The notes below the pieces were generated by a model. That model ran no database searches. It saw nothing but the letters and a program-made list of their open reading frames with translations, and had not been told where the DNA came from. The position numbers and the translations under genes are program-made. A DNA stretch of 46,343 bases from Desulfobacterales bacterium. GTDB taxonomy: Bacteria; Desulfobacterota; Desulfobacteria; Desulfobacterales; Desulfatibacillaceae. The DNA is taken from the NCBI GenBank assembly GCA_020057225.1, contig JAGVGH010000053.1, positions 1 through 46,343 of the forward strand, in the 5' to 3' direction. Of the stretch, positions 721 through 43,281 are shown one piece after another (within the stretch, counting starts at the first letter, position 1; each line of letters begins with the position of its first letter).

Positions 721-736
721 GCGGGTTCCTTTGCGT

Positions 737-1762: not shown

Positions 1763-1767
1763 GGTGT

Positions 1768-10322: not shown

Positions 10323-10351
10323 GGTGCAAAGCCCCTTGTCCGGCCCCTGGG

Positions 10352-10948: not shown

Positions 10949-10953
10949 GTTCG

Positions 10954-12279: not shown

Positions 12280-12281
12280 GG

Positions 12282-14030: not shown

Positions 14031-14032
14031 TG

Positions 14033-23174: not shown

Positions 23175-23579
23175 TTACCCCGCTTCACCTCCAAGGAGCC
23201 ATTCCGCCGCCGCCTGCCATCGAAGCGGCGCTGGCAGCTCGAAGCCGGGCGGTGCGCTGTCCAAGGTCAAGAGTACCGGCAGAGCGTCCGGAAATTCCTG
23301 ATGCGCGGCCTTAAGCGCGCGGATTTCCCTCCCGCGGGTCAACGGGTCCGTAATATCAAGGCAAACTTGAAGGAGAGTCCATTTGCCCACGGGATGACGC
23401 GCAAGGAAATCCACCTCGAAGCCCTCGGCGGTGCGGTAGTAATCCGCCTGGCAGCCACGCCGTTCCAGTTCAATCAACACGGCGGTTTCCAGGGCATGCC
23501 CAAGATTCGGCCTGCCGGTGCGCTCATACGCGGGGATCAATCCAGGGTCCACCGGGTAGGCTTTTCTGGGATTCACCAT
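23175..23579 (-). pseudogene. 5'-truncated remnant of a DUF4143-type AAA+ ATPase gene (C-terminal ~134 aa only)
   Basis: The product starts at NPRKAYPVDPGL. The K.Y..D.GL motif normally sits mid-protein, after the AAA domain. An in-frame stop lies 11 codons upstream, and no P-loop region is present in 23580..23730. Confidence 0.6.
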
Positions 23580-23730: not shown

Positions 23731-25416
23731 CTAAAACGCCTCCACCCGAAACTGGCAGCTCACCCCTTCGTCCTGAATGTCATAATCCGGCGGCTCATCC
23801 ACGTCCCGGAAACCCTTGCCCCAATACAACCGAAACCCGACCCCCTCCGTTATATCCCACACCACCCCTGTCCCCGCCGAATAGATACTCTCCGGCACAG
23901 GGTCCGCCCCCGAATGGTTCCACCCCTGCCCAAAATCCATAAAAAACGCAAGCTGCACCAGCCCCGGGCCTTGCCGCCCCTCCATCTCCGGAAACCTGAG
24001 CCTCCCCACCGCCCAGCGCCACTCCACACTTGCCGTAACCCCGTTGTCCGTCGTAAGCTGGTTCTCCCGGTATCCCCGAACCGTGGAATCCCCCCCTATC
24101 ACAAACTTCTCCGCAGGCGGCAAATCATTGTCGCACACCTGGGCGCCGGCCCTGAATATCAAAACAGAGCCTAAGGACTCCACCCGCTCCATCCACCAAA
24201 ACCGGGGAAGAAACGCAAGATAACGCTCGTCCGCCCGCCTCCGGCGCTCCACCTCGCCAAGCATCAGGCTGGACTGAAAAGAAACAACACGCTCCGCATC
24301 CCGGCGCGACCATTCCCCAAGAACGCCAAGGGCGTTGATGGTGCTTTTTCCGTAATCCACGTTGGGAGCAAAGGAATACGGCTCCCCCAAAAGCCGCGTC
24401 TTGCCCCAGGTCTTCCCGCCCCGCAGACCTATGGAAAACTCCTGGACCGGACTCCTGCTCAACGGCAGGCGCGCTGTCATCCCCGCCGCTGTGGACTTGC
24501 TCTGAATATCCAAAATATCCAAGGGCGGCTGCACAATGGCCGTCTCCTCGCGCGCCACGTCCATCCCCAGCGTGGCCCCTCCCGCCCCCAAAGGCGCCGT
24601 GTAGGAGGCCATGTACTCCTTGGACCCGGTGGACAGCCCGAACCTTGCCTCCAGGGTGTCGCCCATGCCCAGCACGGACAGGTGTTTGCCCTGGACCCGG
24701 GCAAGGCAGGATCCCACACTGGGGGGCTTGTGGTTGGAAAGGTCAAAGGAGAGACTGTAAGGCCGCTTTTCCCTGACCTTGACAAACAGGGCCGATTCCC
24801 CTTCCCTGGTTCCTTTGCCGGTCTTCACCTCGACATCCTCCACGCGGGGATCGGCCCTGAGCAGCGCAAGGCGGCGTTCGAGTTCCTGGACATTGAGGGG
24901 CGCCGGACGCTCCCCGGCCTTATATCCCAGGCGCCGGGTGATGTAGGAGGGAGAGAGGCTCACATTGCCGGAAACCTGGATAAAAGTGAGGTTGCTTTCG
25001 CTCACCGCAAGCCGGACCACCCCGGTTTCCGCCTCCTGGGAGGCGAGCACCGCGGCGTTGGGGTATCCCGCGTCCGTGTAGAACCGGGTCACGGCGTCCG
25101 CGGCCTTTTTCAGGACATCCGGAGTGCCTTGCCGGCCCAGCCAGGGGGCGGTCACAGGGGCGAGGACTTTTTGACTGAAAACCGTGTTGCCGGAGAAACG
25201 GAATTCCCGGACTGGCAGGGCGGCGCGGGAAGCGTCCCGGCTCCGGGTCAGAAGGTCCCGGGCGGCCTTGCTTTCCTCGGGCCACTGAAGGGGCCTTGCT
25301 GTTTCCGGCATTCCGCCGGCTCCGGCCTGGGCCGGAAGACCGGGAGCCTGGGCGCGGGCAGGCGCCGCCGCAAGCAGCAGCGCGGCGAAAAGGCTTATGG
25401 GGAGGGATCGTTTCAA
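23731..25416 (-). CDS. ShlB/FhaC/HecB-family (TpsB) outer-membrane transporter with POTRA region
   Basis: The ORF's N-terminal 153 codons read through the MITE and are discarded. TTG 25416 gives MKRSLPISLFAALLLAAAPARAQA, a classical signal peptide. TpsB hallmarks are present: FVIGGDSTVRGY, a 16-strand-like C-terminal half and a terminal aromatic residue (…FRVEAF). Confidence 0.85.
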   Translation of the reverse strand: MKRSLPISLFAALLLAAAPARAQAPGLPAQAGAGGMPETARPLQWPEESKAARDLLTRSRDASRAALPVREFRFSGNTVFSQKVLAPVTAPWLGRQGTPDVLKKAADAVTRFYTDAGYPNAAVLASQEAETGVVRLAVSESNLTFIQVSGNVSLSPSYITRRLGYKAGERPAPLNVQELERRLALLRADPRVEDVEVKTGKGTREGESALFVKVREKRPYSLSFDLSNHKPPSVGSCLARVQGKHLSVLGMGDTLEARFGLSTGSKEYMASYTAPLGAGGATLGMDVAREETAIVQPPLDILDIQSKSTAAGMTARLPLSRSPVQEFSIGLRGGKTWGKTRLLGEPYSFAPNVDYGKSTINALGVLGEWSRRDAERVVSFQSSLMLGEVERRRRADERYLAFLPRFWWMERVESLGSVLIFRAGAQVCDNDLPPAEKFVIGGDSTVRGYRENQLTTDNGVTASVEWRWAVGRLRFPEMEGRQGPGLVQLAFFMDFGQGWNHSGADPVPESIYSAGTGVVWDITEGVGFRLYWGKGFRDVDEPPDYDIQDEGVSCQFRVEAF

Positions 25417-25698
25417 ATCAGGCGCCGTGTTGCCGGGCAAGGCGCGGCAGGATGCCCGCCCGAAGCGAAAAGAACGTCCCGCGGTATGCGGGGGTATATT
25501 CCGGAATGCTGAAAGTGCCGCGCGCCAAAGACTATAGCAACCAGGGCAGGGAGGCGCAAGGCGATTCTTAGCAGAGCCGGGACAGCGGCGCGCGCCCAAA
25601 AGGCGTGAACTCCCCGTTGACAATCCCCGGTTTTCAGGCGAAAACCCAATGACAGTTCCATTTTTTCGGCTCCTGTTTTCGCGCTGGATCCGGACCTT

Positions 25699-25818
25699 AT
25701 ACCAAAATGCGGTCCAATCCGTACCACCTGCTGAAAGCTCCCGCTCCCGCTCAATCTCCCTCTCCCTGTGGGAGAGGGCTGGGGTGAGGGCGTACCTTGT
25801 CTGATTGCACCTTGGTAT
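25699..25818 (+). mobile_element. MITE-like element, full copy B (in the divergent promoter region between tpsB and the giant gene)
   Basis: The 120-bp element runs ataccaaaatgcggtcc ... ccctctccctgtgggagaggg ... gattgcaccttggtat. Its imperfect termini are ATACCAARRTGC, with an internal hairpin CCCTCTCCC-tgt-GGGAGAGGG. Its reverse complement matches 36364..36477 closely, apart from a 6-bp indel. Confidence 0.7.
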
Positions 25819-25958
25819 TAAAGAACAAAAACCTGCGGTTCTTCCAAAGGCCGGACCCGCCGCTTCCCGCGGCATCGAGGCACAACGCGTATCCCTTGTC
25901 CGTTCGCGCCCGACGCCGGACAGATAACCCGTGAACCGCCTTCCGGAGGTCTATTCCC

Positions 25959-28900
25959 ATGCGGCTCGCCAAACGCCAGGGCCATGCCCTTTTCCCCGCT
26001 CTCTTGCTCACACTTCTCTTTCTTTCCGCGGCGGGACAGTTTTCCGTGTGTCTCCCGGCGGACGCGCCCCCGCCTCCTGTCCTCTCCGCGGGAACGCCGG
26101 ACAGCGAAGGGCGGCCTGTCTGGACATGGACCTCGGGCAGGGGCGGCGGCGTAATGGTCTTTGCCGGGGGAGCGTTCTCCTCGGCGGGCGGCGCCGGGGC
26201 ATCCAACCTTGCGGCCTGGGATTCCAGGACCGGGGCATGGTCGGCGGTGGGAAAAGGCGTCGGCGGGCCTGTGCGCTCCCTTCTTGCGGACACCGGCGTG
26301 GTGCGCGTGGGCGGAGGAGCGGGAGTGGCTTTCTGGGACACCACGACCGGCGCGTTTCACACACCGGGCGGCGGCGTCGGGGGTGAGGTCCATGTCCTTG
26401 CCATGGACGGGGACGGCAGGCTGTACGCGGGCGGCGCGTTCCGCCAGGCCGGAGGAGAGTCCGCCCGCTCCATCGCGCGGTGGAACCCTGGCGCCCGTGT
26501 CTGGTCCGGTTTGGGCGGCGGTCTTCCCGGCCCGGTGTTCGCCATTGCCATCGGCGGCGGGCATGTGTACGGCGGCGGCTCTTTTGCCCTGGACGTTCCC
26601 GGGGCCGGGGCCAACATGGCCCGGTGGTCCCTCTCCGAAGGCGCGTGGCGGGGGGTTGCCGGAGGGGCGAACCGGACAGTCACCGCCATGGCCATGGGAC
26701 CGGACGGCAGCCTGTACGCCGCGGGGGAGTTTTCCCAGGCGGGCGGCCTTGCGGCGGGAAACGTGGCGGCCTATGACCCGGGAAGCAAAACCTGGCGCGC
26801 CTTGGGCAAAGGCCCGGGCGGCCCGGTGTACGCCCTCCTGCACTGGGGGGGCGCCTTGTACGCGGCAGGCTCGTTTTCCGGCGGCGTGGCCCGGTACTCC
26901 GCGGGCGCGTGGAAAAAGCCCGGGGGAGGACTGGACGGCGGAGACGTCCTGGCCCTGGCCGACGGACCGGACGGCAGGCTGTACGCGGGCGGAAGATTCA
27001 CCCTTGCCGGGGGCGTTGCCGCCGGACATGTGGCGGCCTGGAACCCTGGCCAGGGCGCCTGGACTCCCCTGGGAGCGGGGGTCGGCGGCCCTGTGCGCGC
27101 CCTTGGGGTTCTCCGGATTCCCGTGTACCGGGTGAAACTGGATGATCCCTCCCTGGAGCAGGGCGCCCGTATCACCTCCAAAGAAACCTTTGCGCCTGAA
27201 AGCGCGACCGGACAGCATACGCTGTATGTCCAGGAGGGCGGGCTTCTTGGCAACTGGTCCCCCTCCGCCTCCCTGGCGCTTCAGGCGGGCGCGCCTCCGG
27301 CGGCGGCTCCTGCGGTTCCCGCCGATGTGACCCTGGCCGCTCCCGCTCCGGCCCCCGCGCCGCCTGTTCCGCCTGTCCCTGCGGTTGCCCCGGCAGTCCC
27401 GGAGCCGGAACCCCCTGCCCCAGCGGAAACCCTGGAGGACGCCGGGGAAAAGCCGGAGGCGGCGCCGGAAGAGGCCGGAGAGATTGAAATCGGGGAAGGA
27501 GGCGAGGCCGCTGTGGCGCCGGAGGAAGCGCCCGAACCTGTGGCGCCTGTCACGCCCGCGACTCCGCCGCCCCCCCCGGCTCCTGTTCCGCCTCCGCCCA
27601 GAGTCAACGTGGTCAATCCTGTTCTTCCGGGCGGCATTCCCCCTGTCAAACCGTTCACCGCCATCGAAGAGCCGCTTCCCGCCGCGTCCTCTCCGGGGGA
27701 GGCAACGCCCGCCGCCCTCCCAGGTCCGGACGGACTTACGCCTTCCGGCAGGCCCGGCGGCGCGCCCTTGCCAGGGGCGCCCCTTGTCTCGGTTGTGGAA
27801 GCCACCAACAATCCCAGGCCCGCCTTTGAATGGCAGTCCGGCGGCGGCGGCTCCGGACTGTTCCATTACCGCATAGGCTTCGACGCCGCCTGGATGGAAA
27901 CCCGGGAAACCCGGTACACCCCAACAAGCGCCCTGCCTGACGGACGCCACACCCTGTATGTCCAGGAGGCGGACACGGAAGGCCGCTGGTCGGATCCCGG
28001 CGCCGCCACCGTGGTTGTGGACTCCACCCCCCCCCATCCGCCGGTGGTTTCGGTCAAGACTCCCACCAGCGAAAAAAGCCCGGAATGGACCATTCAAAGC
28101 GGGGGGGACGGCGAGGGCGTGTTCGGCGTCCAGTTGGACGCGCGGGACAAGGACGGCTGGAAAGAGTTCACCGGAACGTCCTTTCGCCCGGAAACCCCCT
28201 TTGAGGACGGAAAACACGTCCTCCATGTCCGGGAACGGGACAAGGCGGGCAACTGGTCCGGGGTGACCTCCCGTGAAGTGACGGTGGACACCGCGCCCCC
28301 CAAAACTCCAAGGCTCAAGGCGGTAAGCGCGCCCATGGCTCCCAGGCCCGCGTGGATCTGGGAAAGCGGCGGAGGAGGCGCCGGGATTTTCCGGTATCAG
28401 ATGGACGGCCAAAAAGAAGACGGCGCCACGGAAACCAAAGAGAAAAAATTCTCCGTGGAAGAATACCTCGCCTCCGGGGAGCACGCCCTGTTTGTCCAGG
28501 AAACGGACGAGGCGGGCAACTGGAGCGAGGCCGCTGGCCTGACAGTGACCGTGGACGCCAGCGCCCCTGGAAAACCCAGGGTTTCCGCCAAAAGCCCGGT
28601 CAACACGCGGACCCCCGGCTGGACATGGGTGAGCGGAGGCGAAGGTTCGGGGGTTTTCCGCGTTCAACTGAACGGCGAGGCCGAAGGCAAGTGGGCCACT
28701 GTCGAGGCGTTTGAGTACACGCTGTCCAAGCCCGTGCCCAAGGACGGAAAACACACTCTCTACGTGCAGGAGGCCGACCCCGCGGGCAACTGGTCCGAGT
28801 CCGGTTCAGGGGAGGCCCTGGTGGACACGGAGCCTCCGGATCCGCCAAGGGTCGAGTGCCCGGAAACCACCACCTCGCCCGCCCCGGTCTGGCGCTGGAA

Positions 28901-31900
28901 ATCCGGCGGCGGTGGAAACGGCCTCTTCCGCCTTCGCCTGGACGTGGCGGAAAACGGTCCGTGGACCGAGACCGCCGCCACGGAATACAGCCCGGAAAAG
29001 CCCTTTGAGACAGAAGGCGCCCATGTTTTGGAAGTCGCGGAGCAGGATGCCGCAGGCAACTGGTCCGAGGCCGGAAGGGCGGAAACCCTGTTTGACAAAA
29101 CCCCTCCCGCCCCTCCCGCCCTTGAGGTGAAAACCCAGGGAACCGGGGCGCGGCCTGTCTGGACCTGGAAAAGCGGCGAGGGAGGCGCGGGCCTGTTCCG
29201 CTGCCGGCTGGACGGAAACCCCGAGGCGTGGGAGGAAACAGACCAAACCGCCTTCCGGCCCGAAACCAACCTCAGCCCGGAAAAGGAGCATGTTTTCGAG
29301 GTCCAGGAGCAGGACAAGGCAGGCAACTGGAGCGCCTCCGCCGCGCTTTCCACCGTTGTGGACACCAAGGCCCCGGAGCCTCCCATCGTGACGGTTCAAA
29401 GCCCCACGCGCAACCGGAGGCCCTCCTGGTCCTGGAAAACGGGCGGCGGGGGAACGGGAGTGTTCGAAGTGCAGCTTGACGGCACGGACGATGGCAAGTG
29501 GGCCGTTGTCGAGGCAAGCGCTTACACGCCGGCCAAGCCTTTGAAGGACGAGGGGGAGCACGCGCTGTACGTGCGGGAGAAGGACGCGGCGGGCAACTGG
29601 TCCGACCCGGGCAAGGCGGCGGTGGTTCTGGACAGGACCCCGCCCGCGCCTCCGGGATTTATGAAAAACGAGGCGGTGAACACTCGGCAGCCTGTGTGGC
29701 GCTGGAAATCCGGCGAAGGCGGGGAAGGTCTCTTCCGCTACCGGCTTGGAGAGGGCCCCTGGACAGAAACCCGGGAAACGGAATTCCGGCCCGCGCCGCC
29801 TTTTGAGAAGGACGGGCGGTATGTGCTCGAAGCCGCGGAGCGGGATACCGCGGGCAACTGGTCGGAAACCGCAAGCCAGGCTCTTACTGTGGACACGGAG
29901 CCTCCCGCCGCGCCCAAAGTCGTGGGCCTGGAGGTCACATCCAACGGCACGCCCACCTGGACCTGGACGCCGGGCGGCGGCGGCGCAGGCGTCTTCCGCT
30001 GCCAGCTTGACGGCGAGGACGGGGAGTGGAAGACCCTGGAGGAGACGGATTTCACTCCGGGCGAGGCATTGGATGAAAGCGGCCCGCACACGCTCTTTGT
30101 GCAGGAGCGGGATATTGCGGGCAACTGGTCCTCATCAGGGAGCCATGCGGTCACGGTGGACACAACCGCGCCCGGCGCGCCGGTTGTGACGGTTAAAAGC
30201 CCGACCAGCGACGCCACGCCGGAATGGACATGGAAGTCCGGGGGCAACGGCGCCGGGGAGTTCCGGGTACAGCTTGGCTCAGAAGAGGAAAAATGGACGG
30301 AAACCCAAAAGACCTCCTTTACCCCTGACAAACCCGCGGCCAAGGACGGGGAGCTTACGCTTTTTGTGCAGGAGCGGGATTCCGCGGGCAACTGGTCGCC
30401 CAGCGGCTCGGCCCGCGCGCTGGTGGACACCAAGCCTCCTGCCCCTCCCAAGGTTGAGGTGAAAAGCCCTGTGGCGACAGCCCGTCCCGCGTGGCGCTGG
30501 ACAAGCGGCGGAGGCGGCGGGGGATTCCGGCTCAAGACCTCCTGGGGCAAGGGGGACTGGGTGGAAACAGCAGCAACGGAATACACGCCGGGCGGGGATT
30601 TGACCGCCGGAAAGGGTTACACCGTCCATGTGCAGGAGAGGGACGCGGCGGGCAACTGGAGCGCGTCCGCCCAGGCCGGAACCTTGGTTGACACGGAGCC
30701 TCCCAAGGCTCCCAAGGTAACAGGCAAGACCCCTGTCGCCACACAGACCCCGACTTGGGAATGGACGGGCGGAGGAGGCGGCGCCGGGATCTTCCGGACA
30801 CGGCTTGATTCCGCCGACGCCCAGGCCATGGAGATTTCCGCCACGTCCTGGACCGCTCCGGAACCCCTGGAGGACGGGGACCATGTCCTTTCCGTGGAGG
30901 AGCGGGATATTGCGGGCAACTGGTCCTCATCAGGGAGCCATGCGGTCACGGTGGACACCACCGCGCCCGGCGCGCCGGTTGTGACGGTTAAAAGCCCGAC
31001 CAGCGACGCCAGGCCGGAATGGACATGGAAATCCGGAGGCAACGGCGCCGGGGAGTTCCGGGTACAGCTTGGTTCGGAAAAGGGGACGTGGACGGAAACC
31101 TCAAAGACCTCCTTTGCCCCTGACAAACCCGCGTCCAAGGAGGGGGAGCTTGTGCTCTATGTGCGGGAGCGGGACCTTGCGGGCAACTGGTCGCCAAGCG
31201 GATCCGCCCGCGCGCTGGTGGACACAACACCCCCTGCCCCTCCCAAAGTGGAGACAAAAAGCCCTGTAACAACACCCCGGCCCACATGGCGCTGGACAAG
31301 CGGCGGAGGTGGCGGGGGATTCCGGCTCAAGACTTCCTGGGGCAAGGGGGACTGGGTGGAAACAACAGCGACGGAATACACGCCGGGCGGGGATTTGACC
31401 GCCGGAAAGGGTTACACCCTGGAGGTCCAGGAAAAAGACCTTGCCGGAAACTGGAGCGCGGCCGGCTCAGGCAAGGTGCTCATTGACACCGAGCCGCCCA
31501 AACCGCCCAGGGTTGCCGGAGCAACCCCTGTCACAACCAAAACCCCGGCATGGGAATGGGAAAGCGGCGGGGGAAATGGCGCGGGGGTTTTCCGGACGCG
31601 GTTAGACTCCGGGAAAGCGGCTCCGGAGGAAACCTCCTACACCCGGTTTACCCCCTCCGCGCCCCTTGCGGACGGAGAGCACACGCTTTTTGTGGAGGAG
31701 CGGGATATTGCTGGCAACTGGTCCGCCCCCTGCAGCCACACGGTAACGGTGGACACCGTGGCGCCCCCGGCTCCCAAGGTGACAGGACAAAGCCCGACCG
31801 CTCTGCCCCGCCCCGCGTGGACCATTGAAAGCGGCGGCGGCGCAGGCGTCTTCCGCGCGCAACTGGACGGGGACTCCCCGGACGGCTGGTTCAATCCCGC

Positions 31901-34900
31901 AACGCGCGCCTACTCTCCGGAGAAGAACCTTCCCGACGGCGGGCACACGCTGCGCGTCCAGGAACGCGACGCCGCGGGCAACTGGTCCGCCCCGGCCTCC
32001 TTTGCCGTGGTGGTTGACACCGCTCCCACGCCCCCGCCTGTTCTTTCCGCGAAAACCCCTGTCAGCGCCCTCCGTCCCCTGGTCACATGGACGACGGGCG
32101 GCGGGGACGGCCTCTTCCGCTATCAGTGGGATGACGCCAAGGACTGGACCGAGACAAGGGAAACCAAGGCACGCCCCAAGACCCCCTTCAAGGGCGGAGA
32201 GAAACACGCGTTCCGCGTCCAGGAGCGGGATTCCGCAGGCAACTGGAGCGCGTCCGCGGAATTCACACTGCTTGTGGACACCACGCCGCCCGCTCCCCCT
32301 GTTCTGAAAGGCCCTGCTCTTGCCAGTACAGACCGTCCGGAATGGACCTGGACCTCCGGCGGCGAGGGCGGAACCGGCGTTTTCCGGTTTAAGGAAGAGG
32401 GTGCCAAGGACTGGACCGGGACCCGGGAAACCCGGCACACCCCGGAAACCCCGCTTAAAGACGGTGAAACCCGGACCCTCGCCGTCCAGGAGCAGGACCA
32501 GGCCGGCAACTGGAGCCTGGCTTCAGAAAGCAAGGTCACGGCGGACCTCTCGGCTCCCGCGCCCCCTGTTGTCACGGCCAAAACCCCGGTGAACACGGCG
32601 GCGCCCTCGTGGTCCTGGAGCCCGGGCGGCGGCGGCAACGGAGAATTCAGGGTTAAAACCGGGGAGGAGGGTCAGTGGGAAACGGTAAAAGGCGCCCGCT
32701 ACACGGCCAAAACGCCCCTTGCGGACGGAACGGAGCACACCCTGTTTGTGCAGGAGGCGGACGCGGCGGGCAACTGGTCCGCCTCCGGCTCCTTTGCCGT
32801 CACGGTTGACCTTCAAGCCCCGTCCGCTCCTGGTGTCACGGGCAAGACCCCTGCCAACACGCGGACCCCCTCCTGGTCCTGGAAAACGGGCGGCGGGGGA
32901 TGCGGAATATTCCGCGTTCAACTGGACCAGACAGCGGACGGCGGCTGGAAGGAGACAACGGCCCTCACCCACACCGCCGCGCGCAAGAGCGTCCATGGCG
33001 AAACCCGGACCTTGTACGTGGCGGAGCGGGATCTTGCGGGCAACTGGTCTTCCCCCGGTTCTTATAAGGTGGAAATTGACCTTGAGCCTCCCAAGGCGCC
33101 CAAAATCCAGGCCGATAGCCCGGTCAACAACCCGAGGCCTTCCTGGCGCTGGGAAAGCGGCGGAGGCGGCGCGGGGATCTTCCGCTATAAGCTGGAAAAC
33201 GCGCCTCAAGACTGGACCGAAACCCGGGAGACAGGGTTTGCCGCTCCAACTCCCTTGCCTGCCGGGCGCCACGCGCTGCTGGTTGCCGAGCAGGACGCCT
33301 CGGGCAACTGGTCGGAACCGGCAAAAGCCGGGGTCGAGGTGGACCTTGACCCGCCCGCGCCGCCGGTTGTTTCCTGCTGGTCTTTGACCAACAATCCCAA
33401 ACCCTCCTGGACCTGGAAATCCGGCGGAGACGGCGCCGGAGTCTTCAACATCCGCCTTTCCGGAACCGAAGGCTGGACAGAGACAAGCGCCCTGGAATGG
33501 GCGCCGGAAACGGCCCTTTCCGGGGACGCGGCCTACACCCTCGAAGTCCGGGAACGCGACGCCGCGGGCAACTGGTCCGCTCCCGGTTTTGCGGGCCTGG
33601 TTCTCGACACCGCTCCCCCGGTCCCGCCCCTGGTCAAGGTCCAAAGCCCCGCGCGGAACACCGGGCCGGTGTGGACCATCGTTAGCGGCGGCGAAGGGGA
33701 CGGGACGTTCGAGGCGCAACTGGACACAACCGAAGAGAGCGGCTGGACCCCTGTTAAAACCGGACGGTTCAAGGCGCCCCGGGCGTGGGAAAACGGGGAG
33801 CGGCATGTTCTTCATGTCCGGGAGAGGGACGCGGCGGGGAACTGGTCTTCTCCCGGAAGCGCGGAGGTTTTGGTGGACACAGAGGCTCCCGCCGCCCCGG
33901 TTTTGGCCGCGTATCCGTCCCTCACCCGGGAAAGCCGGATAACGGTTTCCGGAACCCGGGAGCCGGGCGCCCGCGTGCTGGTGAACGGCCTTGAAAAGGC
34001 GCCCGCGGACGGGTCTGAGGCCTGGACCGCCCAGGTGGATTTGGAGGAAGGGGAAAACCGGATAGACGTGGTTTGCGAGGACGCCGCCGGGAACACGGGC
34101 AAATCCGCCAGGGCGCTGGTGCGGCGGGACGCCACGCCTCCGGAGGCCCCGGCCCTGGTGTCCTCGGAGCCGGAGACGGGCGCCGCCTTCCGGGGAGAGA
34201 GGCTGAACCTGGAATGGACGCCCGCATCGGACGCGGCAAGCGGCCTCGCCGGATACCTTTTCGCCTTGGACACCGCCCCGGACACAGAGCCGGGCGGAAC
34301 CCTTGAAAAAACCCTTCCCCCGGTTTTGACCATGGAAAAGGACGGAGTGTATTACCTCCATGTCCTGGCCAAAGACAACGCCGGGAATGATTGCAAAACC
34401 GTTCACCTCGGCCCTTGGACCCGGGACACAGCGCCCCCGGAGCCGCCTAAAATCACCACGGACGGCGGCAACGGTCCGGGCCGCGATTTCAGCACCAGTG
34501 TCCAGGAACTGACCTTGGAGGGAACCGCGTCCCCGGACACCGCGGATATTGTGGTCAACGAGGCGATCGAGGGCGTGGAATACGCCCAGGGTGAAACAGG
34601 CTGGAAATTCACGGGATCGTTGGGGCCCGGAGCGCGCGCCTACACGGTGACGGCTCTGGACGCCGCCGGAAACACGGCAAGCTCCGTCATCACGGTTTCC
34701 TATGTGATGGGACCCGGCACGTACCATGTGGATATCTCCGGCGGCACCGACGACATGGCCTTTGGCACGGGCGCGGGCGTTCTCGCGTTCCGCACCGTCC
34801 ATTACGCGGTGTCGGCCATTAATGAGGGTGTTCCCGGCGCGTATGTTCTCATCATTGAGCCGGGCGTTTACTCGGTGGAGCGCGGGGAAAAGGACGCCGC

Positions 34901-35657
34901 CCTTAAGGTGTTGCGCAAGGGTCTTGTGATCCGGGGCGCCAAGGGGGGCGGGGCTGTTGTATCGGGCAAGGGTGCCAAGAAGTGGAAAGAGGCGTTCATC
35001 CTGGCCGCGCCCGAAGCCTTGGTGGAAGGTCTCACGTTCCGCGATTTTTCCGCGGGCATCGCGGCGGAGTCAGGCGCCAAGGGCTTTGCCGCGCGGGAAA
35101 ACGAATTCCGGGGGCTTGCCCTGGGCGTCCGGGCCGCGGACACGGAAGGGACGGTCGAGCGCTGCCGCTTTACCGCTCCGGACGCGCCCGCGCCCACAGG
35201 AGCCGCGGTTCACGCCACAGGGGGGCAAGTGGTTTTCACCGGCAACCTGGTTAACAACCTTGCCATGGGCTTCCAGGCAACAGGCTCGGCCTCCCGCGTT
35301 GTTGGCAACACCTTTGTCAACACCGCGGTGGCCGTGCGGGGAAACGCCCAAAACCCGGCCACTGTGCAGGGAAACATCTTCTATGCCGGAGTGACCGGCG
35401 TTCTGGCTCCCCCGGGGCTTGTGTCGAATAACAACCTCTTTTTCAAAAACGACATGGACCACGGAGGAGGATGCGCCAAGGGCGCCAATGACCAGGAGGG
35501 CGACCCGAAATTCGCGGACCCGGACAAGGAGGACTACCGGCTCAAGGAAGGCTCGCCCGCGGTGGACATGGCGGGGATTGCCGGGGATGGGCTGGACCTT
35601 GCCGGGACCAAGCGGCCCCAGGGCGCGGCCTGGGACGCCGGGGCGTATGAGAGATAA
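25959..35657 (+). CDS. giant (3,232 aa) secreted repeat protein: signal peptide, nested beta-propeller, Pro-rich linker, 23 tandem Ig-like modules, C-terminal parallel beta-helix
   Basis: The ORF is uninterrupted over 9,699 nt, with GGAGG 8 nt upstream of the ATG. Hydrophobic N-terminus: LFPALLLTLLFLSAAG. Repeat signature: P.W.W.SGGGG.G.FR..LD...W.ET....F.P...L.DG.H.L.VQE.D.AGNWS. The C-terminus ends GTKRPQGAAWDAGAYER. Confidence 0.9.
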   Translation: MRLAKRQGHALFPALLLTLLFLSAAGQFSVCLPADAPPPPVLSAGTPDSEGRPVWTWTSGRGGGVMVFAGGAFSSAGGAGASNLAAWDSRTGAWSAVGKGVGGPVRSLLADTGVVRVGGGAGVAFWDTTTGAFHTPGGGVGGEVHVLAMDGDGRLYAGGAFRQAGGESARSIARWNPGARVWSGLGGGLPGPVFAIAIGGGHVYGGGSFALDVPGAGANMARWSLSEGAWRGVAGGANRTVTAMAMGPDGSLYAAGEFSQAGGLAAGNVAAYDPGSKTWRALGKGPGGPVYALLHWGGALYAAGSFSGGVARYSAGAWKKPGGGLDGGDVLALADGPDGRLYAGGRFTLAGGVAAGHVAAWNPGQGAWTPLGAGVGGPVRALGVLRIPVYRVKLDDPSLEQGARITSKETFAPESATGQHTLYVQEGGLLGNWSPSASLALQAGAPPAAAPAVPADVTLAAPAPAPAPPVPPVPAVAPAVPEPEPPAPAETLEDAGEKPEAAPEEAGEIEIGEGGEAAVAPEEAPEPVAPVTPATPPPPPAPVPPPPRVNVVNPVLPGGIPPVKPFTAIEEPLPAASSPGEATPAALPGPDGLTPSGRPGGAPLPGAPLVSVVEATNNPRPAFEWQSGGGGSGLFHYRIGFDAAWMETRETRYTPTSALPDGRHTLYVQEADTEGRWSDPGAATVVVDSTPPHPPVVSVKTPTSEKSPEWTIQSGGDGEGVFGVQLDARDKDGWKEFTGTSFRPETPFEDGKHVLHVRERDKAGNWSGVTSREVTVDTAPPKTPRLKAVSAPMAPRPAWIWESGGGGAGIFRYQMDGQKEDGATETKEKKFSVEEYLASGEHALFVQETDEAGNWSEAAGLTVTVDASAPGKPRVSAKSPVNTRTPGWTWVSGGEGSGVFRVQLNGEAEGKWATVEAFEYTLSKPVPKDGKHTLYVQEADPAGNWSESGSGEALVDTEPPDPPRVECPETTTSPAPVWRWKSGGGGNGLFRLRLDVAENGPWTETAATEYSPEKPFETEGAHVLEVAEQDAAGNWSEAGRAETLFDKTPPAPPALEVKTQGTGARPVWTWKSGEGGAGLFRCRLDGNPEAWEETDQTAFRPETNLSPEKEHVFEVQEQDKAGNWSASAALSTVVDTKAPEPPIVTVQSPTRNRRPSWSWKTGGGGTGVFEVQLDGTDDGKWAVVEASAYTPAKPLKDEGEHALYVREKDAAGNWSDPGKAAVVLDRTPPAPPGFMKNEAVNTRQPVWRWKSGEGGEGLFRYRLGEGPWTETRETEFRPAPPFEKDGRYVLEAAERDTAGNWSETASQALTVDTEPPAAPKVVGLEVTSNGTPTWTWTPGGGGAGVFRCQLDGEDGEWKTLEETDFTPGEALDESGPHTLFVQERDIAGNWSSSGSHAVTVDTTAPGAPVVTVKSPTSDATPEWTWKSGGNGAGEFRVQLGSEEEKWTETQKTSFTPDKPAAKDGELTLFVQERDSAGNWSPSGSARALVDTKPPAPPKVEVKSPVATARPAWRWTSGGGGGGFRLKTSWGKGDWVETAATEYTPGGDLTAGKGYTVHVQERDAAGNWSASAQAGTLVDTEPPKAPKVTGKTPVATQTPTWEWTGGGGGAGIFRTRLDSADAQAMEISATSWTAPEPLEDGDHVLSVEERDIAGNWSSSGSHAVTVDTTAPGAPVVTVKSPTSDARPEWTWKSGGNGAGEFRVQLGSEKGTWTETSKTSFAPDKPASKEGELVLYVRERDLAGNWSPSGSARALVDTTPPAPPKVETKSPVTTPRPTWRWTSGGGGGGFRLKTSWGKGDWVETTATEYTPGGDLTAGKGYTLEVQEKDLAGNWSAAGSGKVLIDTEPPKPPRVAGATPVTTKTPAWEWESGGGNGAGVFRTRLDSGKAAPEETSYTRFTPSAPLADGEHTLFVEERDIAGNWSAPCSHTVTVDTVAPPAPKVTGQSPTALPRPAWTIESGGGAGVFRAQLDGDSPDGWFNPATRAYSPEKNLPDGGHTLRVQERDAAGNWSAPASFAVVVDTAPTPPPVLSAKTPVSALRPLVTWTTGGGDGLFRYQWDDAKDWTETRETKARPKTPFKGGEKHAFRVQERDSAGNWSASAEFTLLVDTTPPAPPVLKGPALASTDRPEWTWTSGGEGGTGVFRFKEEGAKDWTGTRETRHTPETPLKDGETRTLAVQEQDQAGNWSLASESKVTADLSAPAPPVVTAKTPVNTAAPSWSWSPGGGGNGEFRVKTGEEGQWETVKGARYTAKTPLADGTEHTLFVQEADAAGNWSASGSFAVTVDLQAPSAPGVTGKTPANTRTPSWSWKTGGGGCGIFRVQLDQTADGGWKETTALTHTAARKSVHGETRTLYVAERDLAGNWSSPGSYKVEIDLEPPKAPKIQADSPVNNPRPSWRWESGGGGAGIFRYKLENAPQDWTETRETGFAAPTPLPAGRHALLVAEQDASGNWSEPAKAGVEVDLDPPAPPVVSCWSLTNNPKPSWTWKSGGDGAGVFNIRLSGTEGWTETSALEWAPETALSGDAAYTLEVRERDAAGNWSAPGFAGLVLDTAPPVPPLVKVQSPARNTGPVWTIVSGGEGDGTFEAQLDTTEESGWTPVKTGRFKAPRAWENGERHVLHVRERDAAGNWSSPGSAEVLVDTEAPAAPVLAAYPSLTRESRITVSGTREPGARVLVNGLEKAPADGSEAWTAQVDLEEGENRIDVVCEDAAGNTGKSARALVRRDATPPEAPALVSSEPETGAAFRGERLNLEWTPASDAASGLAGYLFALDTAPDTEPGGTLEKTLPPVLTMEKDGVYYLHVLAKDNAGNDCKTVHLGPWTRDTAPPEPPKITTDGGNGPGRDFSTSVQELTLEGTASPDTADIVVNEAIEGVEYAQGETGWKFTGSLGPGARAYTVTALDAAGNTASSVITVSYVMGPGTYHVDISGGTDDMAFGTGAGVLAFRTVHYAVSAINEGVPGAYVLIIEPGVYSVERGEKDAALKVLRKGLVIRGAKGGGAVVSGKGAKKWKEAFILAAPEALVEGLTFRDFSAGIAAESGAKGFAARENEFRGLALGVRAADTEGTVERCRFTAPDAPAPTGAAVHATGGQVVFTGNLVNNLAMGFQATGSASRVVGNTFVNTAVAVRGNAQNPATVQGNIFYAGVTGVLAPPGLVSNNNLFFKNDMDHGGGCAKGANDQEGDPKFADPDKEDYRLKEGSPAVDMAGIAGDGLDLAGTKRPQGAAWDAGAYER
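26148..27113 (+). other. seven-bladed beta-propeller-like region of the giant protein
   Basis: Seven units of about 47 aa with the signature [LV]Y[AG]GG.F...GG......(A/V)..W......W..(L/V)G.G..GPV.A. Blade motifs start near aa 67, 115, 155, 203, 252, 300 and 341. Confidence 0.7.
27285..27779 (+). other. low-complexity Pro/Ala/Glu-rich linker of the giant protein
   Basis: APPAAAPAVPADVTLAAPAPAPAPPVPPVPAVAPAVPEPEPPAPAETLEDAGEKPEAAPEE..., about 165 aa. Confidence 0.8.
27780..33889 (+). repeat. in-frame tandem array of 23 modules of about 266 bp (88-90 aa), Ig-like (Y_Y_Y/Big-type by resemblance)
   Basis: I counted 23 consecutive modules, each ending in (V/L)D(T).(P/A)P.(P)P. All but the first contain AGNWS (or SGNWS); the first has EGRWS. 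Confidence 0.85.
30105..31697 (+). repeat. recent tandem duplication of a three-module super-unit (795 bp + 798 bp)
   Basis: GAGCGGGATATTGC(G/T)GGCAACTGGTCC recurs at 30105, 30900 and 31698. The stretch 30105..30276 differs from 30900..31071 at only 4 of about 172 positions by hand alignment. Confidence 0.85.
34710..35654 (+). other. C-terminal right-handed parallel beta-helix-like domain with a choice-of-anchor-Q-like tail
   Basis: It has periodic short rungs (GLTFRDF, GIAAESG, ENEFRGL, VERCRFT, FTGNLVNN, VVGNTFVNT, VQGNIFY, SNNNLFF). The terminal motif is DP.F.D....DYRL..GSPA.D........D..G..RP....DAGAYE. Confidence 0.6.
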
Positions 35658-36559: not shown

Positions 36560-38377
36560 ATGGCGGCAGACACAAGCGGCGCGCCCGGAAAAACCCTCTC
36601 GGTTTTCCAGGCCCTGCGCCTCATGGCTCCCCTTTTGCCCATCTTTAAACAGCACCGGCTTGCCCTGGCCGCCGGTATTTGTTCCCTTCTCGTTACCGAC
36701 GCCACCCAGCTTGTCATCCCCCTGGTGGTCAAACGGGCGGTGGACAGCCTTGCCTCGGGCGTGGCGGACTCCGGGGCGCTTCTTGCCCGCGCCGCCGAAA
36801 TCCTCGCCCTTGCCTGTGTCATGGGCCTTTTCCGTTTTCTCTGGCGCTGGTTTCTTCTGGGCTTCTCCCGCCGTGCCGAGTGTCTGCTGCGCGCGCGCCT
36901 CTACGCCCACCTCCAAAAAATGAGCATGGCCTTTTTCCGGAAAAACCCGCCCGGGGATCTCATGGCCCGGGCCACCAACGATTTGAACGCCATCCGCATG
37001 GCCTCGGGCATGGGACTCGCCGCGGCCACCGATTCTTTCGTCATAGGCGCCGCGGCCATTGTCTTCATGCTCTCCATCCACCCCGTCCTCGCGGCGGTCG
37101 CCCTGGTTCCCGCGCCATTCGTGGTTCTCATTTCCCGGATATATACCCGCCGCATGGGCCGGGGCTTTGAGCGCGCCCAGACGCGGTTCGGCCTCCTTAC
37201 CGAGGCGGTCCGCGAGGCGTTCACCGGAATCCGGGTGGTGAAAGCCCACGGGAGAGAGGAATGGACATCCCGGACGGTGCGGGACCGGGGACAGGACTAT
37301 GTGGAGGAAAACCTCTCCCTGGCCCGGAGCTTTGGCGTGTTCATGCCGGTCATGACCGTCTTCTCCAACCTTGGCCTTGCCGTGGTCATCGCCCTGGGCG
37401 GACGCCTGGCCATTTTGGGGGACATCAGCCCCGGGGATTTCGTGGCCTTCATCACCTACCTCAACCTCCTTGCCTGGCCCATGATGGCCATGGGCTGGGT
37501 GGTAAACCTCATCCAGCGCGGCGGCGCCTCCATGCGCCGGGTTTCCCATGTGCTCAACACCCCTCCGGACATCACCGACGGGCCGCTCACCCGGACAGAC
37601 ATCACCGCCCTATCCGGGGAAATCGAGACGCGGGATCTCACGTTCCGGTATCCGGGAAGCTCTGGCCCCGTCCTCGACCATGTTTCCTTTACGGTCCGGC
37701 CCGGGGAAACCGTTTCCGTTGTGGGGCAGGTGGGCTGCGGCAAGTCCTCGCTCTTTCTTGCCCTTTCCCGCATGGTGAATCCGCCGCCCGGCACGGTGTT
37801 TCTGGGCGGACACGATATTCTGACCATTCCCCTGGCGCTTTTAAGGCGCCATGTGGGCTTTGTCCCGCAGGAGCCCGTGGTGTTTTCCGACACCCTACTG
37901 GGCAATGTGGTGTTTGGCCGGGAAGGCATCCGCGAGGAGGAGGTTTGGGAAGCGCTCTCCCTGGCGCGCATGGACGCCGAGGTCAAGGACATGCCGGCAG
38001 GGATTGAAACCGTTGTGGGAGAGCGCGGACTCACCCTTTCCGGAGGGCAAAGGCAGCGTCTGGCCCTTGCCAGGGCGCTTGTGCGTCCGCCCGCGGCGCT
38101 GATTCTGGACGACGCGCTCTCCATGGTGGACACGCGCACAGAGCGGGCCATATTGAACCGGCTCATGGAAGGCAAAGGGGAAATGACCACGCTCATGGCG
38201 ACCCACAGGGTATCCACCAACAAGCGGGCGGATCACGTGGCGGTGCTGCGGGAAGGCAGGCTTCACGAATGGGGTTCCCACGCGGAGCTTATAGCCATGG
38301 ACGGGCATTACCGCAGACTGTACGAGGCGCGCAAGGCGCTGGAGGAAACGGAGGCGGCGCCTGGGCATGTGGGGTGA
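36560..38377 (+). CDS. ABC transporter permease/ATP-binding protein (type IV exporter half-transporter, MdlA-like)
   Basis: 605 aa: six TM helices followed by an NBD. NBD motifs: Walker A GQVGCGKSS, signature LSGGQRQRLALARAL, Walker B LILDDALS. Confidence 0.9.
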   Translation: MAADTSGAPGKTLSVFQALRLMAPLLPIFKQHRLALAAGICSLLVTDATQLVIPLVVKRAVDSLASGVADSGALLARAAEILALACVMGLFRFLWRWFLLGFSRRAECLLRARLYAHLQKMSMAFFRKNPPGDLMARATNDLNAIRMASGMGLAAATDSFVIGAAAIVFMLSIHPVLAAVALVPAPFVVLISRIYTRRMGRGFERAQTRFGLLTEAVREAFTGIRVVKAHGREEWTSRTVRDRGQDYVEENLSLARSFGVFMPVMTVFSNLGLAVVIALGGRLAILGDISPGDFVAFITYLNLLAWPMMAMGWVVNLIQRGGASMRRVSHVLNTPPDITDGPLTRTDITALSGEIETRDLTFRYPGSSGPVLDHVSFTVRPGETVSVVGQVGCGKSSLFLALSRMVNPPPGTVFLGGHDILTIPLALLRRHVGFVPQEPVVFSDTLLGNVVFGREGIREEEVWEALSLARMDAEVKDMPAGIETVVGERGLTLSGGQRQRLALARALVRPPAALILDDALSMVDTRTERAILNRLMEGKGEMTTLMATHRVSTNKRADHVAVLREGRLHEWGSHAELIAMDGHYRRLYEARKALEETEAAPGHVG

Positions 38378-40499
38378 TTACGGATACATGGAGGAGGGGA
38401 AGCTGGGCAAGCCCTACAACCTGGGGCTGTTGCGGAGGCTCGCCAGGTACGCCCGCCCCTGCCGGGGGATTATCATCCTCGCCCTGGCCGTAAGCCTCCT
38501 TGGCACCGCGGCGGATTTGGCGGTGCCGTATCTCACCAAGACCGCCATTGACCGGTATATCATCGCGGCCTGGCACCGCCTGCCCGCGCCCGGGGTTTTG
38601 CCCGCCCGTGCCGGGGAGGCCCTTGCCAAAGCCTCGCGGGGCATGGTGACAACAGGAGACGGGACGCGGTTTGTCTCCCAGGCGGAGCTTTCGCGGCTGG
38701 GCCCGGACACGCGGGCGGAACTGGAAAAGCGGGGCGTGTTCAAGGGCTGGCATTACCGGGTGGACGTGCCGAAGGAGGGGGAATCCGCGCGCCGGATACG
38801 AGATGTTATTGCCCGGATTAAGGGCAAAAATGTCTATATGGAAGATACTTTTGCCCTCATTCCCAGAGCCGCCCTCGATGCCCTCCCACGGCAGGAGCGC
38901 GCCCTTCTCCGCGCCCCCCAGCTCCAGGGCGCCCTCCACACCGGCCTCCTCCTCCTCGGGCTCGTCCTCGCCGCCTTCTGCCTCGGCTATTCCCAGTACA
39001 ACCTCCTCGAACGCGCCGGGCAGACCATCATGTCCGACATCCGAAACACGCTCTTCGCCCACCTCCAGCGCCAGTCCCTCGCCTTTCACCACAAAAACCC
39101 CGTGGGACGCCTCGTCACCCGCGTCACCAACGACGTGGAAAACCTGAACGAGCTTTTCAAGTCCGTCATCGTCACCGTGTTCGGCGACATTTTTCTTCTC
39201 TCCGGCATCACCGCCGCCATGCTCTGGCTTGACTGGCGCCTTTCCCTGGCATGCCTTGCCCTGGCGCCTCCCGTGGTCCTGGGGACAGCCCTGTTGTCCG
39301 CCAAGGCCCGGGACGCCTTCCGCGACCTCCGGACCACCATTTCCCAAATCAACACCCACCTCCAGGAGCGCCTTTCCGGCATGCGGGCCGTGCAGCTTCT
39401 CTCCGCGGAGCCCCACCAGATGGCGCTTTTTTCAAAAACCAACGACGAGAACCTCCGGGCCGGACTGCGCCAGATAGCGGTCTTTGCCGTGTTCCTGCCC
39501 ATGGTCGAGCTTTTCTCCTACATCGGCATCGCCCTCCTCATCTGGCGCGGCGGTCTCATGGCCCGGGACGGGCAGGTCACCCTGGGCACGCTGGTGGCCT
39601 TTGTGAGCTATACCGGCATGTTTTTCAGACCCATGCGGGACATCGCGGAGAAATGGAACATCATGCAGTCCGCCATGGCCTCCATGGAGCGCATCTTTGA
39701 ATATCTGGACCAGGACCATTCCCTGCCGGAGCCGGAACACCCCCGGACGCCGGACAAGGCGGCCGGGCATCTTGTGGCGAAAGACCTTTGGTTTTCCTAT
39801 AATTCCAAGGAGCCTGCCCTCCGGGGAGTCTCCTTTGAGGCGCCGCCGGGCGGGATGTACGCCTTTGTCGGGAGGACAGGGGCGGGCAAGACAACGCTGG
39901 TGCATCTGGTGGAGCGCTTTTACGATCCGGACCAGGGAGCGGTGCTTTTGGACGGCGTGGATTTGCGGGACTGGCCGTCTAAAGAGCTGCGGAAACACTT
40001 GGGACTGGTGCTCCAGGATGTGTTTCTGTTCGCGGCGACCGTGCGGGAGAACGTGACGCTGGGCGCGGACAGTGTGGACGAGGCGGCGCTGGCCCGCGCC
40101 CTTGAGGAGTCCGGGGCGGCGGGATTTGCGGGGCGGCTGCCCCTGGGGCTGGACACGGTGTTGAGCGAGGGCGGGGCGAACCTGTCGGCGGGGGAGCGGC
40201 AGCTTTTGAGTTTTGCGCGGGCCTTGTACCATGACCCCCGGGTTTTGATATTGGACGAGGCGACCTCGTCGGTGGACCCGGAGACGGAGCGGCTGATCCA
40301 GGGGGCGGTGCTTTCCATGTCGCGGAGGCGGACGCTGTTGGTTGTGGCGCACCGGCTTTCGACGGTGGAGAGGGCGGACCGGATTATTGTGTTGAGCGGG
40401 GGCCGTGTGGAGGAGGAGGGGACGCACGGGGAGCTGATGGAGCGGCGGGGGATGTATTGGCGGTTGAGGAAGAGCGGGGGATTGGCGGAGGAGGGGTAA
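38367..40499 (+). CDS. ABC transporter permease/ATP-binding protein (MdlB-like) with a ~110-120 aa insertion after TM1
   Basis: 710 aa; the start overlaps the previous stop by 11 nt (alternative ATG at 38388). Walker A GRTGAGKTT, signature LSAGERQLLSFARAL, Walker B LILDEATS. A non-hydrophobic segment (aa ~62-185) lies between TM1 and the next TM. Confidence 0.88.
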   Translation: MWGDYGYMEEGKLGKPYNLGLLRRLARYARPCRGIIILALAVSLLGTAADLAVPYLTKTAIDRYIIAAWHRLPAPGVLPARAGEALAKASRGMVTTGDGTRFVSQAELSRLGPDTRAELEKRGVFKGWHYRVDVPKEGESARRIRDVIARIKGKNVYMEDTFALIPRAALDALPRQERALLRAPQLQGALHTGLLLLGLVLAAFCLGYSQYNLLERAGQTIMSDIRNTLFAHLQRQSLAFHHKNPVGRLVTRVTNDVENLNELFKSVIVTVFGDIFLLSGITAAMLWLDWRLSLACLALAPPVVLGTALLSAKARDAFRDLRTTISQINTHLQERLSGMRAVQLLSAEPHQMALFSKTNDENLRAGLRQIAVFAVFLPMVELFSYIGIALLIWRGGLMARDGQVTLGTLVAFVSYTGMFFRPMRDIAEKWNIMQSAMASMERIFEYLDQDHSLPEPEHPRTPDKAAGHLVAKDLWFSYNSKEPALRGVSFEAPPGGMYAFVGRTGAGKTTLVHLVERFYDPDQGAVLLDGVDLRDWPSKELRKHLGLVLQDVFLFAATVRENVTLGADSVDEAALARALEESGAAGFAGRLPLGLDTVLSEGGANLSAGERQLLSFARALYHDPRVLILDEATSSVDPETERLIQGAVLSMSRRRTLLVVAHRLSTVERADRIIVLSGGRVEEEGTHGELMERRGMYWRLRKSGGLAEEG

Positions 40500-40546
40500 A
40501 ACGGGCTTTCGACAAATTGTTTGACAGGAGGTGCGGGCCGGTTTAG

Positions 40547-40564
40547 ATACTGACCAGTCAGTAT
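40547..40564. promoter_or_regulatory. TetR-type operator palindrome ATACTGAC-ca-GTCAGTAT
   Basis: Perfect 8-bp arms. It lies 18 nt upstream of the TetR ATG (40582), which has GGAG 6 nt upstream. Confidence 0.6.
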
Positions 40565-40581
40565 TGAACACGGAGCCTGCC

Positions 40582-43279: not shown

Positions 43280-43281
43280 CC

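Follow-up and report, generated by a model that had tools for sequence, protein, structure and literature searches.

We examined a contig of the Desulfobacterales assembly GCA_020057225.1 (JAGVGH010000053.1, positions 1 to 46,343 of the forward strand; this whole stretch of 46,343 nucleotides is referred to as the window). The longest open reading frame (ORF) of the region, 25959..35657 on the plus strand, encodes a protein of 3,232 amino acids (aa) and 337 kDa, referred to here as the giant protein. A first-pass annotation had read this protein as a signal followed by a seven-bladed propeller, a Pro/Ala/Glu linker, 23 tandem modules, and three immunoglobulin (Ig)-like modules, and all of these elements are present according to profile hidden Markov models (HMMs), composition, and AlphaFold models. 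The proposed domain order holds in part: instead of standing ahead of the repeats, the propeller is, on sequence evidence, nested within a split copy of the repeat, which we call module 0.

The gene is a real, intact ORF with native codon bias and a good Shine-Dalgarno sequence. It is open over 3,232 codons, and its G+C fractions at the three codon positions (0.67, 0.58, and 0.76) resemble those of the surrounding housekeeping genes. The NCBI gene call yields the identical 3,232-aa product, and the same GGAGGTCT-N-ATG arrangement is found upstream of the gene for a homologue, P0310, described below. The JGI annotation starts at Met66, where there is no Shine-Dalgarno sequence and from where the signal peptide would be lost. 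The features of the gene are as follows, in window coordinates.

25945..25961, plus strand: Shine-Dalgarno sequence GGAGG (25945-25949) and ATG start codon (25959), read from the sequence, with a spacing of 9 nt
25959..26036, plus strand: Sec signal peptide, aa 1-26, with n-region MRLAKRQGH and h-region ALFPALLLTLLFLSAA
26064..26150, plus strand: N-terminal part of module 0, aa 36-64, PPPPVLSAGTPDSEGRPVWTWTSGRGGG, covering module HMM positions 1-30 (i-Evalue 4.5e-7)
26151..27122, plus strand: seven-bladed Kelch/Rax2/delta-60-type β-propeller, aa 65-388, nested in module 0 by sequence
27123..27290, plus strand: C-terminal part of module 0, aa 389-444, VYRVKLDD...GQHTLYVQEGGLLGNWS, covering HMM positions 31-84 at aa 389-441 (i-Evalue 5.7e-9)
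27291..27770, plus strand: Pro/Ala/Glu-rich spacer, aa 445-604 (160 aa), by composition
27771..33884, plus strand: 23 tandem Big_13/Y_Y_Y/OmpL47-type Ig-like modules, aa 605-2642, by HMMs
30099..31193, plus strand: three-module super-repeat, with 30099-30398 and 30894-31193 being 91% identical over 300 nt at a distance of 795 nt
33885..34703, plus strand: three divergent Ig-like domains, aa 2643-2915 (Ca_tandemer/Big_6/Glucodextran_B, OmpL47-type barrel, and Big_13)
34704..35654, plus strand: predicted right-handed β-helix domain, aa 2916-3232, by HMMs, likeness to P0310, and a structural model
35532-35651, plus strand: choice-of-anchor Q motif, aa 3192-3231, directly followed by the stop codon

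Domains of the giant protein

The signal peptide lies within the sole hydrophobic segment of the protein (aa 8-34) and has a likely signal peptidase I (SPase I) site, A-A-G before Q, with cleavage after aa 26. A Cys at position 31 had been put forward as a possible lipidation site. This lipoprotein reading was rejected: in the tetrapeptide FSVC (aa 28-31) the Val at -1 breaks the lipobox rule [LVI][ASTVI][GAS]C, and P0310 has no Cys at this place.

The propeller has seven blades by sequence repeats, and its AlphaFold model consists of 28 strands (seven times four) with a predicted local distance difference test score (pLDDT) above 95 over aa ~64-389. It matches Pfam Rax2 (54 bits) and DUF5122, and Foldseek relates it to Kelch propellers (E ~1e-12). 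The domain is basic, with an isoelectric point (pI) of 9.8, as opposed to about 5 for the rest of the protein. The spacer that follows module 0 is rich in proline (31%), alanine (21%), and glutamate (11%), is acidic (pI 4.05), and matches no Pfam family.

A custom module HMM, built from the 23 tandem modules, has two further partial matches near the N-terminus, which are collinear, exactly bracket the propeller, and are split at HMM position 30/31. With the propeller removed and the two halves joined in silico, a full-length module results that scores 69 bits over HMM positions 1-84, while none of 60 shuffles exceeded 3.6 bits. Moreover, repeat family D1 includes the DNA of the C-terminal half as a 62% copy. 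Because the AlphaFold model of aa 30-450, in which the propeller is confident, left the two module halves disordered (the alignment had no coverage there), the nesting rests on the HMM evidence, which indicates that the propeller is inserted after the SGxGG loop of a 24th module. From the split-module match and the rejoined score the order of the protein thus becomes signal peptide, module 0 with its propeller, spacer, 23 modules, three Ig-like domains, and β-helix.

The 23 full modules have a period of 87-90 aa, a mean pairwise identity of 44%, and individual scores of 99-119 bits with the module HMM, which finds these 23 copies and the split one in the giant protein. Their suggested resemblance to Y_Y_Y and Big-type Ig folds is borne out by Pfam and NCBIfam HMM scans. 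Big_13 (PF19077) reaches 357.7 bits over 14 stretches (cutoff 27), and Y_Y_Y (PF07495), which covers the same modules, reaches 94.1 bits (cutoff 26.6). The barrel_OmpL47 domain (NF047446) scores 120.8 bits against a cutoff of 40, while the equivalog model for Leptospira OmpL47 itself (NF047441) stays at 87.2 bits, below its cutoff of 250. There is also a direct but weak sequence match between the modules and the BIg domains of SiiE (PDB 2yn3); Big_13 is the SiiE BIg family and has been named among rod-forming stalk domains (PMC9704523).

The repeat families share 60-79% DNA identity, the exception being the one 300-nt pair at 91%, where module 10 is 85% identical to module 13 and module 11 is 81% identical to module 14 at the amino acid level. 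Judged from these identities, the repeats are old and diverged, apart from one three-module duplication, and nowhere in the gene but in this super-repeat is an error in repeat number during assembly plausible.

The first-pass annotation had likened the C-terminus to a β-helix of the choice-of-anchor-Q or pectate-lyase type with a DP.F.D...AGAYE tail, and HMMs agree. NosD reaches 24.9 bits, above its cutoff of 23.6, and Beta_helix scores 25.8 bits, just under its cutoff of 25.9. Choice_anch_Q (NF041518, cutoff 25) scores 27 bits when the whole protein is scanned and 32.7 bits when the C-terminus is taken alone, with the motif taking the form DPxFxDPxxxDYRLxxGSPAxD...AGAYE. A right-handed β-helix is the probable fold, also in view of the model and the structural matches given below, and folds of this class serve almost exclusively to bind or cut polysaccharides. 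Past the choice-of-anchor Q domain, the protein has a single further residue.

No LPXTG motif, repeats-in-toxin (RTX) sequence, PEP-CTERM, C-terminal domain of the type IX secretion system (T9SS), autotransporter, or TPS domain was found by Pfam and NCBIfam HMMs and by motif scans of the whole protein, in agreement with the earlier inspection by eye; nor did the motif scan find a lipobox or a C-terminal hydrophobic segment. For the TPS domain, there is no PF05860 match at E ≤0.1 and no NPNL/NPNGI motif, and the idea of a TPS-like C-terminal β-helix was discarded, as BLASTP against a TPS protein returned no similarity. The RTX motif GGxGxDxUx is likewise absent from the giant protein, in which Ca_tandemer matches one domain only. 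Choice-of-anchor domains mark surface-exposed proteins and are normally followed by LPXTG, PEP-CTERM, or T9SS signals (bioRxiv 10.1101/2023.03.06.531300); such an accompanying signal is absent from both the giant protein and P0310, which also ends directly after the motif.

A collinear homologue and a candidate surface fiber

An exhaustive search with aa 1-1200 against 1.84 billion representative proteins returned 32,183 proteins at E ≤0.001, and among the best 150, which we inspected, P0310 (3,539 aa; GCA_964575315.1, contig CAZNQU010000129.1) is the sole match to the full architecture. It is collinear with the giant protein throughout, with a signal peptide, a split module containing a propeller, an acidic spacer, 23 full modules, three Ig-like domains, and a β-helix with a choice-of-anchor-Q end. 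Identity is 44-47% in the head and tail, with 47% in the head (signal and split module) and 46% in the β-helix tail (phmmer E 4e-86). The spacer is acidic, of similar length, and in the same place, but unrelated in sequence. This collinearity shows that selection has maintained the architecture and that assembly did not create it.

P0310 additionally contains a second nested propeller. Here HMM positions 2-29 match at aa 1646-1673, the propeller occupies aa 1676-1986, and HMM positions 29-88 follow at aa 1988-2048, so that an internal module is interrupted at the same HMM position as the first; the rejoined module scores 85.7 bits. The nesting has accordingly been found three times in two proteins, and its recurrence within P0310 shows that the propeller-in-module is a reusable unit. 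Separately, aa 1113-1643 of P0310 (locus L008) hold a near-exact duplication of three modules (1113-1377 and 1379-1643, with identical HMM scores and recurring sequence blocks). This recent expansion sits at a relative position close to that of the super-repeat in the giant gene. Downstream of the P0310 gene lies an α/β hydrolase gene, where the giant gene has a PCC-domain gene, and on the upstream side only 370 bp remain before the end of the contig, with no neighbor readable.

Word-indexed homology searches with shorter queries, which reach proteins up to ~1.75 times the query length and have giant relatives outside their scope, indicate that propellers of this class are widespread, as are modules of this class. 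A scan of GTDB genomes with the whole protein gave one weak Fibrobacteres locus, and a scan of JGI metagenomes with the head alignment gave one propeller-only locus at 35%; neither revealed a further member. The architecture, which had been flagged as unusual, is not that of a described family, but with one full homologue it is not unique either.

Based on its domains, the giant protein is probably a Sec-exported, non-lipidated, rod-like surface or extracellular fiber of the adhesin kind with a carbohydrate-directed β-helix. The earlier proposal of a fiber-like adhesin with a β-helix tip fits the Big_13/Y_Y_Y/OmpL47-type modules and the likeness to SiiE (2yn3). The location at the surface is predicted from the parallel with OmpL47 and SiiE-type domains, and the carbohydrate ligand and the end that faces the cell are likewise put forward as predictions. 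After signal cleavage, the chain would begin with one Big_13-type module carrying a complete propeller in its Gly-rich loop, followed by the spacer. The 23 modules and three Ig-like domains would then form a stiff stalk of perhaps ~80-100 nm, scaled from SiiE-type BIg rods, that may hold the β-helix with its choice-of-anchor-Q tail distal, away from the cell. The propeller could serve as a second ligand-binding head or as a cell-proximal head.

Several points weigh against a surface fiber. No experiment or sorting signal puts the giant protein on the surface, genome context is uninformative, and module-bearing relatives occur in unrelated neighborhoods. Y_Y_Y domains and propellers occur in periplasmic sensor domains too. 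Structure prediction, which the first-pass annotation had proposed as a check, was confident for the propeller but not for the module 0 halves or the β-helix: the β-helix model, made from a two-sequence alignment, has a mean pLDDT of 55, with model residues 120-260 at 65-85 and forming three-strand coils, and its Foldseek matches are weak (E ≥0.02, TM ≤0.38). The β-helix as a single sequence has no PDB sequence match; the two-sequence profile has one marginal match, to the PL6 alginate lyase AlyGC (E 0.003), and in this alignment the Ca-binding Glu residues and the catalytic Lys/Arg pair of PL6 enzymes are not evident, although an alignment this weak leaves room for a different active site.

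The same matches raise the alternative that the protein is primarily an enzyme. The β-helix would then cleave polysaccharides as a lyase or hydrolase, the Ig array would be no more than a spacer or tether, and the protein would be a giant cell-associated depolymerase instead of an adhesin. Weak as they are, the Foldseek matches are all carbohydrate-active right-handed β-helices (chondroitinase B, HK620 tailspike, GH87, and PL6), module-bearing relatives from Fibrobacterota sit among glycoside hydrolase genes, and a motif, NDM(D/H)HGGGC, is strictly kept between the β-helices of the giant protein and P0310. We nevertheless consider a primarily enzymatic role unlikely, given that these matches are marginal and the model poor, that the PL6 residues are not apparent, and that no CAZy-type family HMM matches the giant protein in the Pfam and NCBIfam scans. 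Furthermore, NosD- and CASH-type β-helices are often non-catalytic binders.

Neighboring genes and possible routes of export

The first-pass annotation had found no secretion module beyond the Sec signal, which is true of the giant protein itself; a gene for a TpsB-type Omp85 transporter, however, lies immediately upstream in divergent orientation.

23731..25416, minus strand: TpsB-type (ShlB/FhaC/CdiB) Omp85 transporter gene, ~561 aa from TTG 25416, divergent from the giant gene
25417..25958: the ~540 bp between the two divergent genes, containing a REP-like hairpin, CCCTCTCCC-aca-GGGAGAGGG, at ~25745-25790

The product contains POTRA_2, ShlB, and Omp85 domains and matches CdiB (6wim, E 3e-8). 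Of the motifs defined for TpsB transporters, L6 VRGY/F and F/GxDxG (PMC5422565), it has VRGY in L6 (as STVRGY) and FxDxG (as FMDFG). Annotations of the start differ, with NCBI choosing ATG 25311 (526 aa, without a signal peptide) and JGI choosing TTG 25440 (569 aa). A signal peptide is obtained only with TTG 25416 or 25440; TTG 25416, which gives the classical signal peptide KRSLPISLFAALLLAAAPARAQA, is the plausible start. From these features the transporter looks functional. The mechanical ORF (23731-25875, minus strand, 714 aa) is an over-extension across the REP-like hairpin, which translates to a spurious 'LTPALSHRERE' peptide typical of repeat-element pseudo-ORFs. A simple scan found no sigma-70-like promoter in the intergenic region.

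It is conceivable that this TpsB translocates the giant protein in a type Vb-like manner despite the absent TPS domain, with the propeller-in-module head acting as a periplasmic stopper, the spacer threading the barrel, and the stalk and β-helix lying outside. The two genes are immediate neighbors, head to head across a shared 540-bp intergenic region, the transporter appears functional, and no TPS-domain gene is present among the window ORFs scanned. In addition, the order of head, spacer, rod, and distal binder parallels that of type I secretion system (T1SS) adhesins with N-terminal retention modules (PMC13090378). What is missing is the TPS domain, the defining recognition element of TpsA cargo, of which HMMs, motifs, and comparison with a TPS protein give no sign in the giant protein.

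Conservation of the gene pair offers no help. Among 5.8 billion proteins, the closest relatives of the TpsB, which belong to Desulfobacterales, Electrothrix, and cyanobacteria, do not exceed 40% identity, so that no orthologue from the P0310 genome is seen. At six loci of TpsB relatives, the neighbors include a TPS-domain protein in three, TPR-CHAT proteins in four, and a CHASE2 sensor in three, and none of the six has a giant Ig protein nearby, although two contigs are too short to name a partner. Conversely, no TpsB gene lies near any of the five module-bearing relatives inspected whose flanks were usable; giants of 5,040 and 6,149 aa are among these relatives. What ties the TpsB to the giant protein is thus adjacency, and we regard this link as possible but unsupported and quite improbable. 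Slightly less probable again is the wider proposal that an orphan TpsB both exports and retains a giant adhesin lacking a TPS domain, which would be a new Sec-dependent, type-V-like way convergent with LapA/SiiE retention.

The loci of the TpsB clade themselves share a cassette (L002 2898-11719, L013 9885-21528, L014 4989-13972, and L001 10001-14061) of a TPS-domain protein, TPR-CHAT, CHASE2, and sometimes DUF928, in which the TPS-domain protein is sometimes fused to TPR-CHAT. We found no description of this TPS/CHAT/CHASE2 cassette in the literature.

That the protein stays in the periplasm, for example as an envelope scaffold or a sensor-like protein, or is tethered through an uncleaved signal anchor or a lipidated Cys31, is very unlikely. 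A propeller with Y_Y_Y domains is the layout of periplasmic sensors in hybrid two-component systems, and the giant protein carries no outer-membrane export signal. However, a rod of 27 Ig domains, at the predicted ~80-100 nm, would far exceed the width of the periplasm, transmembrane, kinase, and other signaling domains are absent, the putative lipidation site neither fits the lipobox nor is conserved, and choice-of-anchor Q and OmpL47-type domains go with surface proteins.

Type I secretion through the ABC, HlyD-family, and TolC-like genes downstream, in the manner of LapA, SiiE, and DvhA-type adhesins, was rejected as extremely unlikely. In its favor, giant BIg adhesins are typically T1SS cargo (PMC6272769 and PMC13090378), and the same strand carries genes for ABC exporters, a membrane fusion protein, and an outer-membrane component no more than 10 kb downstream. 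Against it, the giant protein has a classical Sec signal and no RTX nonapeptide, the ABC pair is not of the HlyB type and is best described as SmdA/SmdB/MsbA-like, and T1SS models score far below cutoffs. The fusion protein resembles MacA/MacB systems, as do the ATPase and the permease, domain scans gave neither a C39 nor a CLD domain, and a PCC-domain gene and a terminator-like hairpin separate these genes from the giant gene. A surface fiber exported by Sec remains the reading we prefer.

The window is chromosomal. Upstream, on the minus strand, it contains V-type ATPase genes, pheST, and infC-rplT, while downstream the giant gene is followed by the PCC-domain gene, the SmdAB/MsbA-like ABC pair, and a MacAB-TolC-like set. 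The latter two occupy 36560-46000 on the plus strand. They comprise the half-transporter pair, the second member of which has an extra, unassigned N-terminal region of ~190 aa, and then a split MacA/MacB-type pump and a TolC-like gene, none of which reaches an NCBIfam equivalog cutoff. The TolC-like and Omp85 genes point to a diderm host.

Between infC and the TpsB gene, an ORF on the minus strand (23175-23579) matches the C-terminal part of DUF4143 only (positions 78-158 of the 160-position profile). It resembles what is left of a truncated ATPase gene and may mark an old insertion or rearrangement. The V/A-type ATPase operon (8553-15441, minus strand; I subunit, B, A, and a DUF2764 subunit) has a GC content of 0.54-0.58, compared with ~0.63 elsewhere, which hints at horizontal acquisition. 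A cluster at 166-4399 (minus strand) encodes a GNAT acetyltransferase, two ATP-grasp proteins (D-Ala-D-Ala-ligase-like), and a lysine-2,3-aminomutase-like radical SAM protein, possibly forming a pathway for a beta-lysine-derived compound. Rfam and tRNA scans detected no RNA genes in the window. All housekeeping proteins tested (L20, PheS, PheT, and V-ATPase A and B) are singletons at 90% identity among ~15 billion proteins, and the genome is absent from the GTDB species representatives, so that these collections contain no closely related sequenced lineage.

Relation to known giant adhesins

In its long array of ~90-aa Big_13-type domains forming a rod with distinct terminal domains, the giant protein, as interpreted here, resembles SiiE, the LapA/MpIBP class, and the DvhA-type adhesins of Desulfovibrio. 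Giant T1SS adhesins also share the layout, in which a folded head at the N-terminus is followed by a linker, an extender, and binding domains at the distal end. The giant protein differs from them in its cleavable Sec signal, in lacking RTX, a C-terminal T1SS signal, and a nearby HlyB-type transporter, and in having a nested propeller as its head and a β-helix as its tip.

Leptospira OmpL47 (LIC13050) is comparable in domain type, in its Sec/SPase I signal, and in being a non-lipoprotein without a recognized anchor. It is surface-exposed according to proteinase K treatment, immunofluorescence, and biotinylation (PMC2698987). OmpL47 itself is much simpler, at 39 kDa, with few domains and without a propeller, spacer, or β-helix.

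The choice-of-anchor Q motif and β-helix place the C-terminus in the fold class of PL6 lyases and tailspike depolymerases. Choice-of-anchor Q proteins usually carry sorting signals, whereas the giant protein and P0310 end at the domain, and the catalytic residues of known lyases are not recognizable in the giant protein. TpsA/TpsB systems (FHA/FhaC and CdiA/CdiB) are alike in combining an adjacent TpsB gene with a very large, Sec-dependent candidate cargo that contains a β-helix; the giant protein differs in lacking the TPS domain, in having a short β-helix at the C-terminus, and in being encoded divergently instead of in an operon. Periscope proteins, too, project a functional domain on a single-chain stalk of Ig-like domains, and Big_13 is among the stalk folds listed for them, but they are defined by high DNA identity between neighboring repeats (PMC9704523), which the repeats of the giant protein do not have.

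Giant Ig-repeat proteins are the main long-range adhesins of many bacteria, and almost all that have been characterized carry a recognizable T1SS/RTX, sortase, T9SS, or autotransporter signal. The nested propeller is a clean natural example of a domain insertion into an Ig-like repeat, and the composite can be treated as a unit in annotation. If the TpsB is the exporter, type V secretion would extend to cargo without a TPS domain; if it is not, the giant protein would be one more large environmental adhesin-like protein. In the giant protein and P0310, an architecture has been maintained with a Sec signal alone, as in the smaller OmpL47, and together with OmpL47 the giant protein points to a not-yet-described route across the outer membrane.

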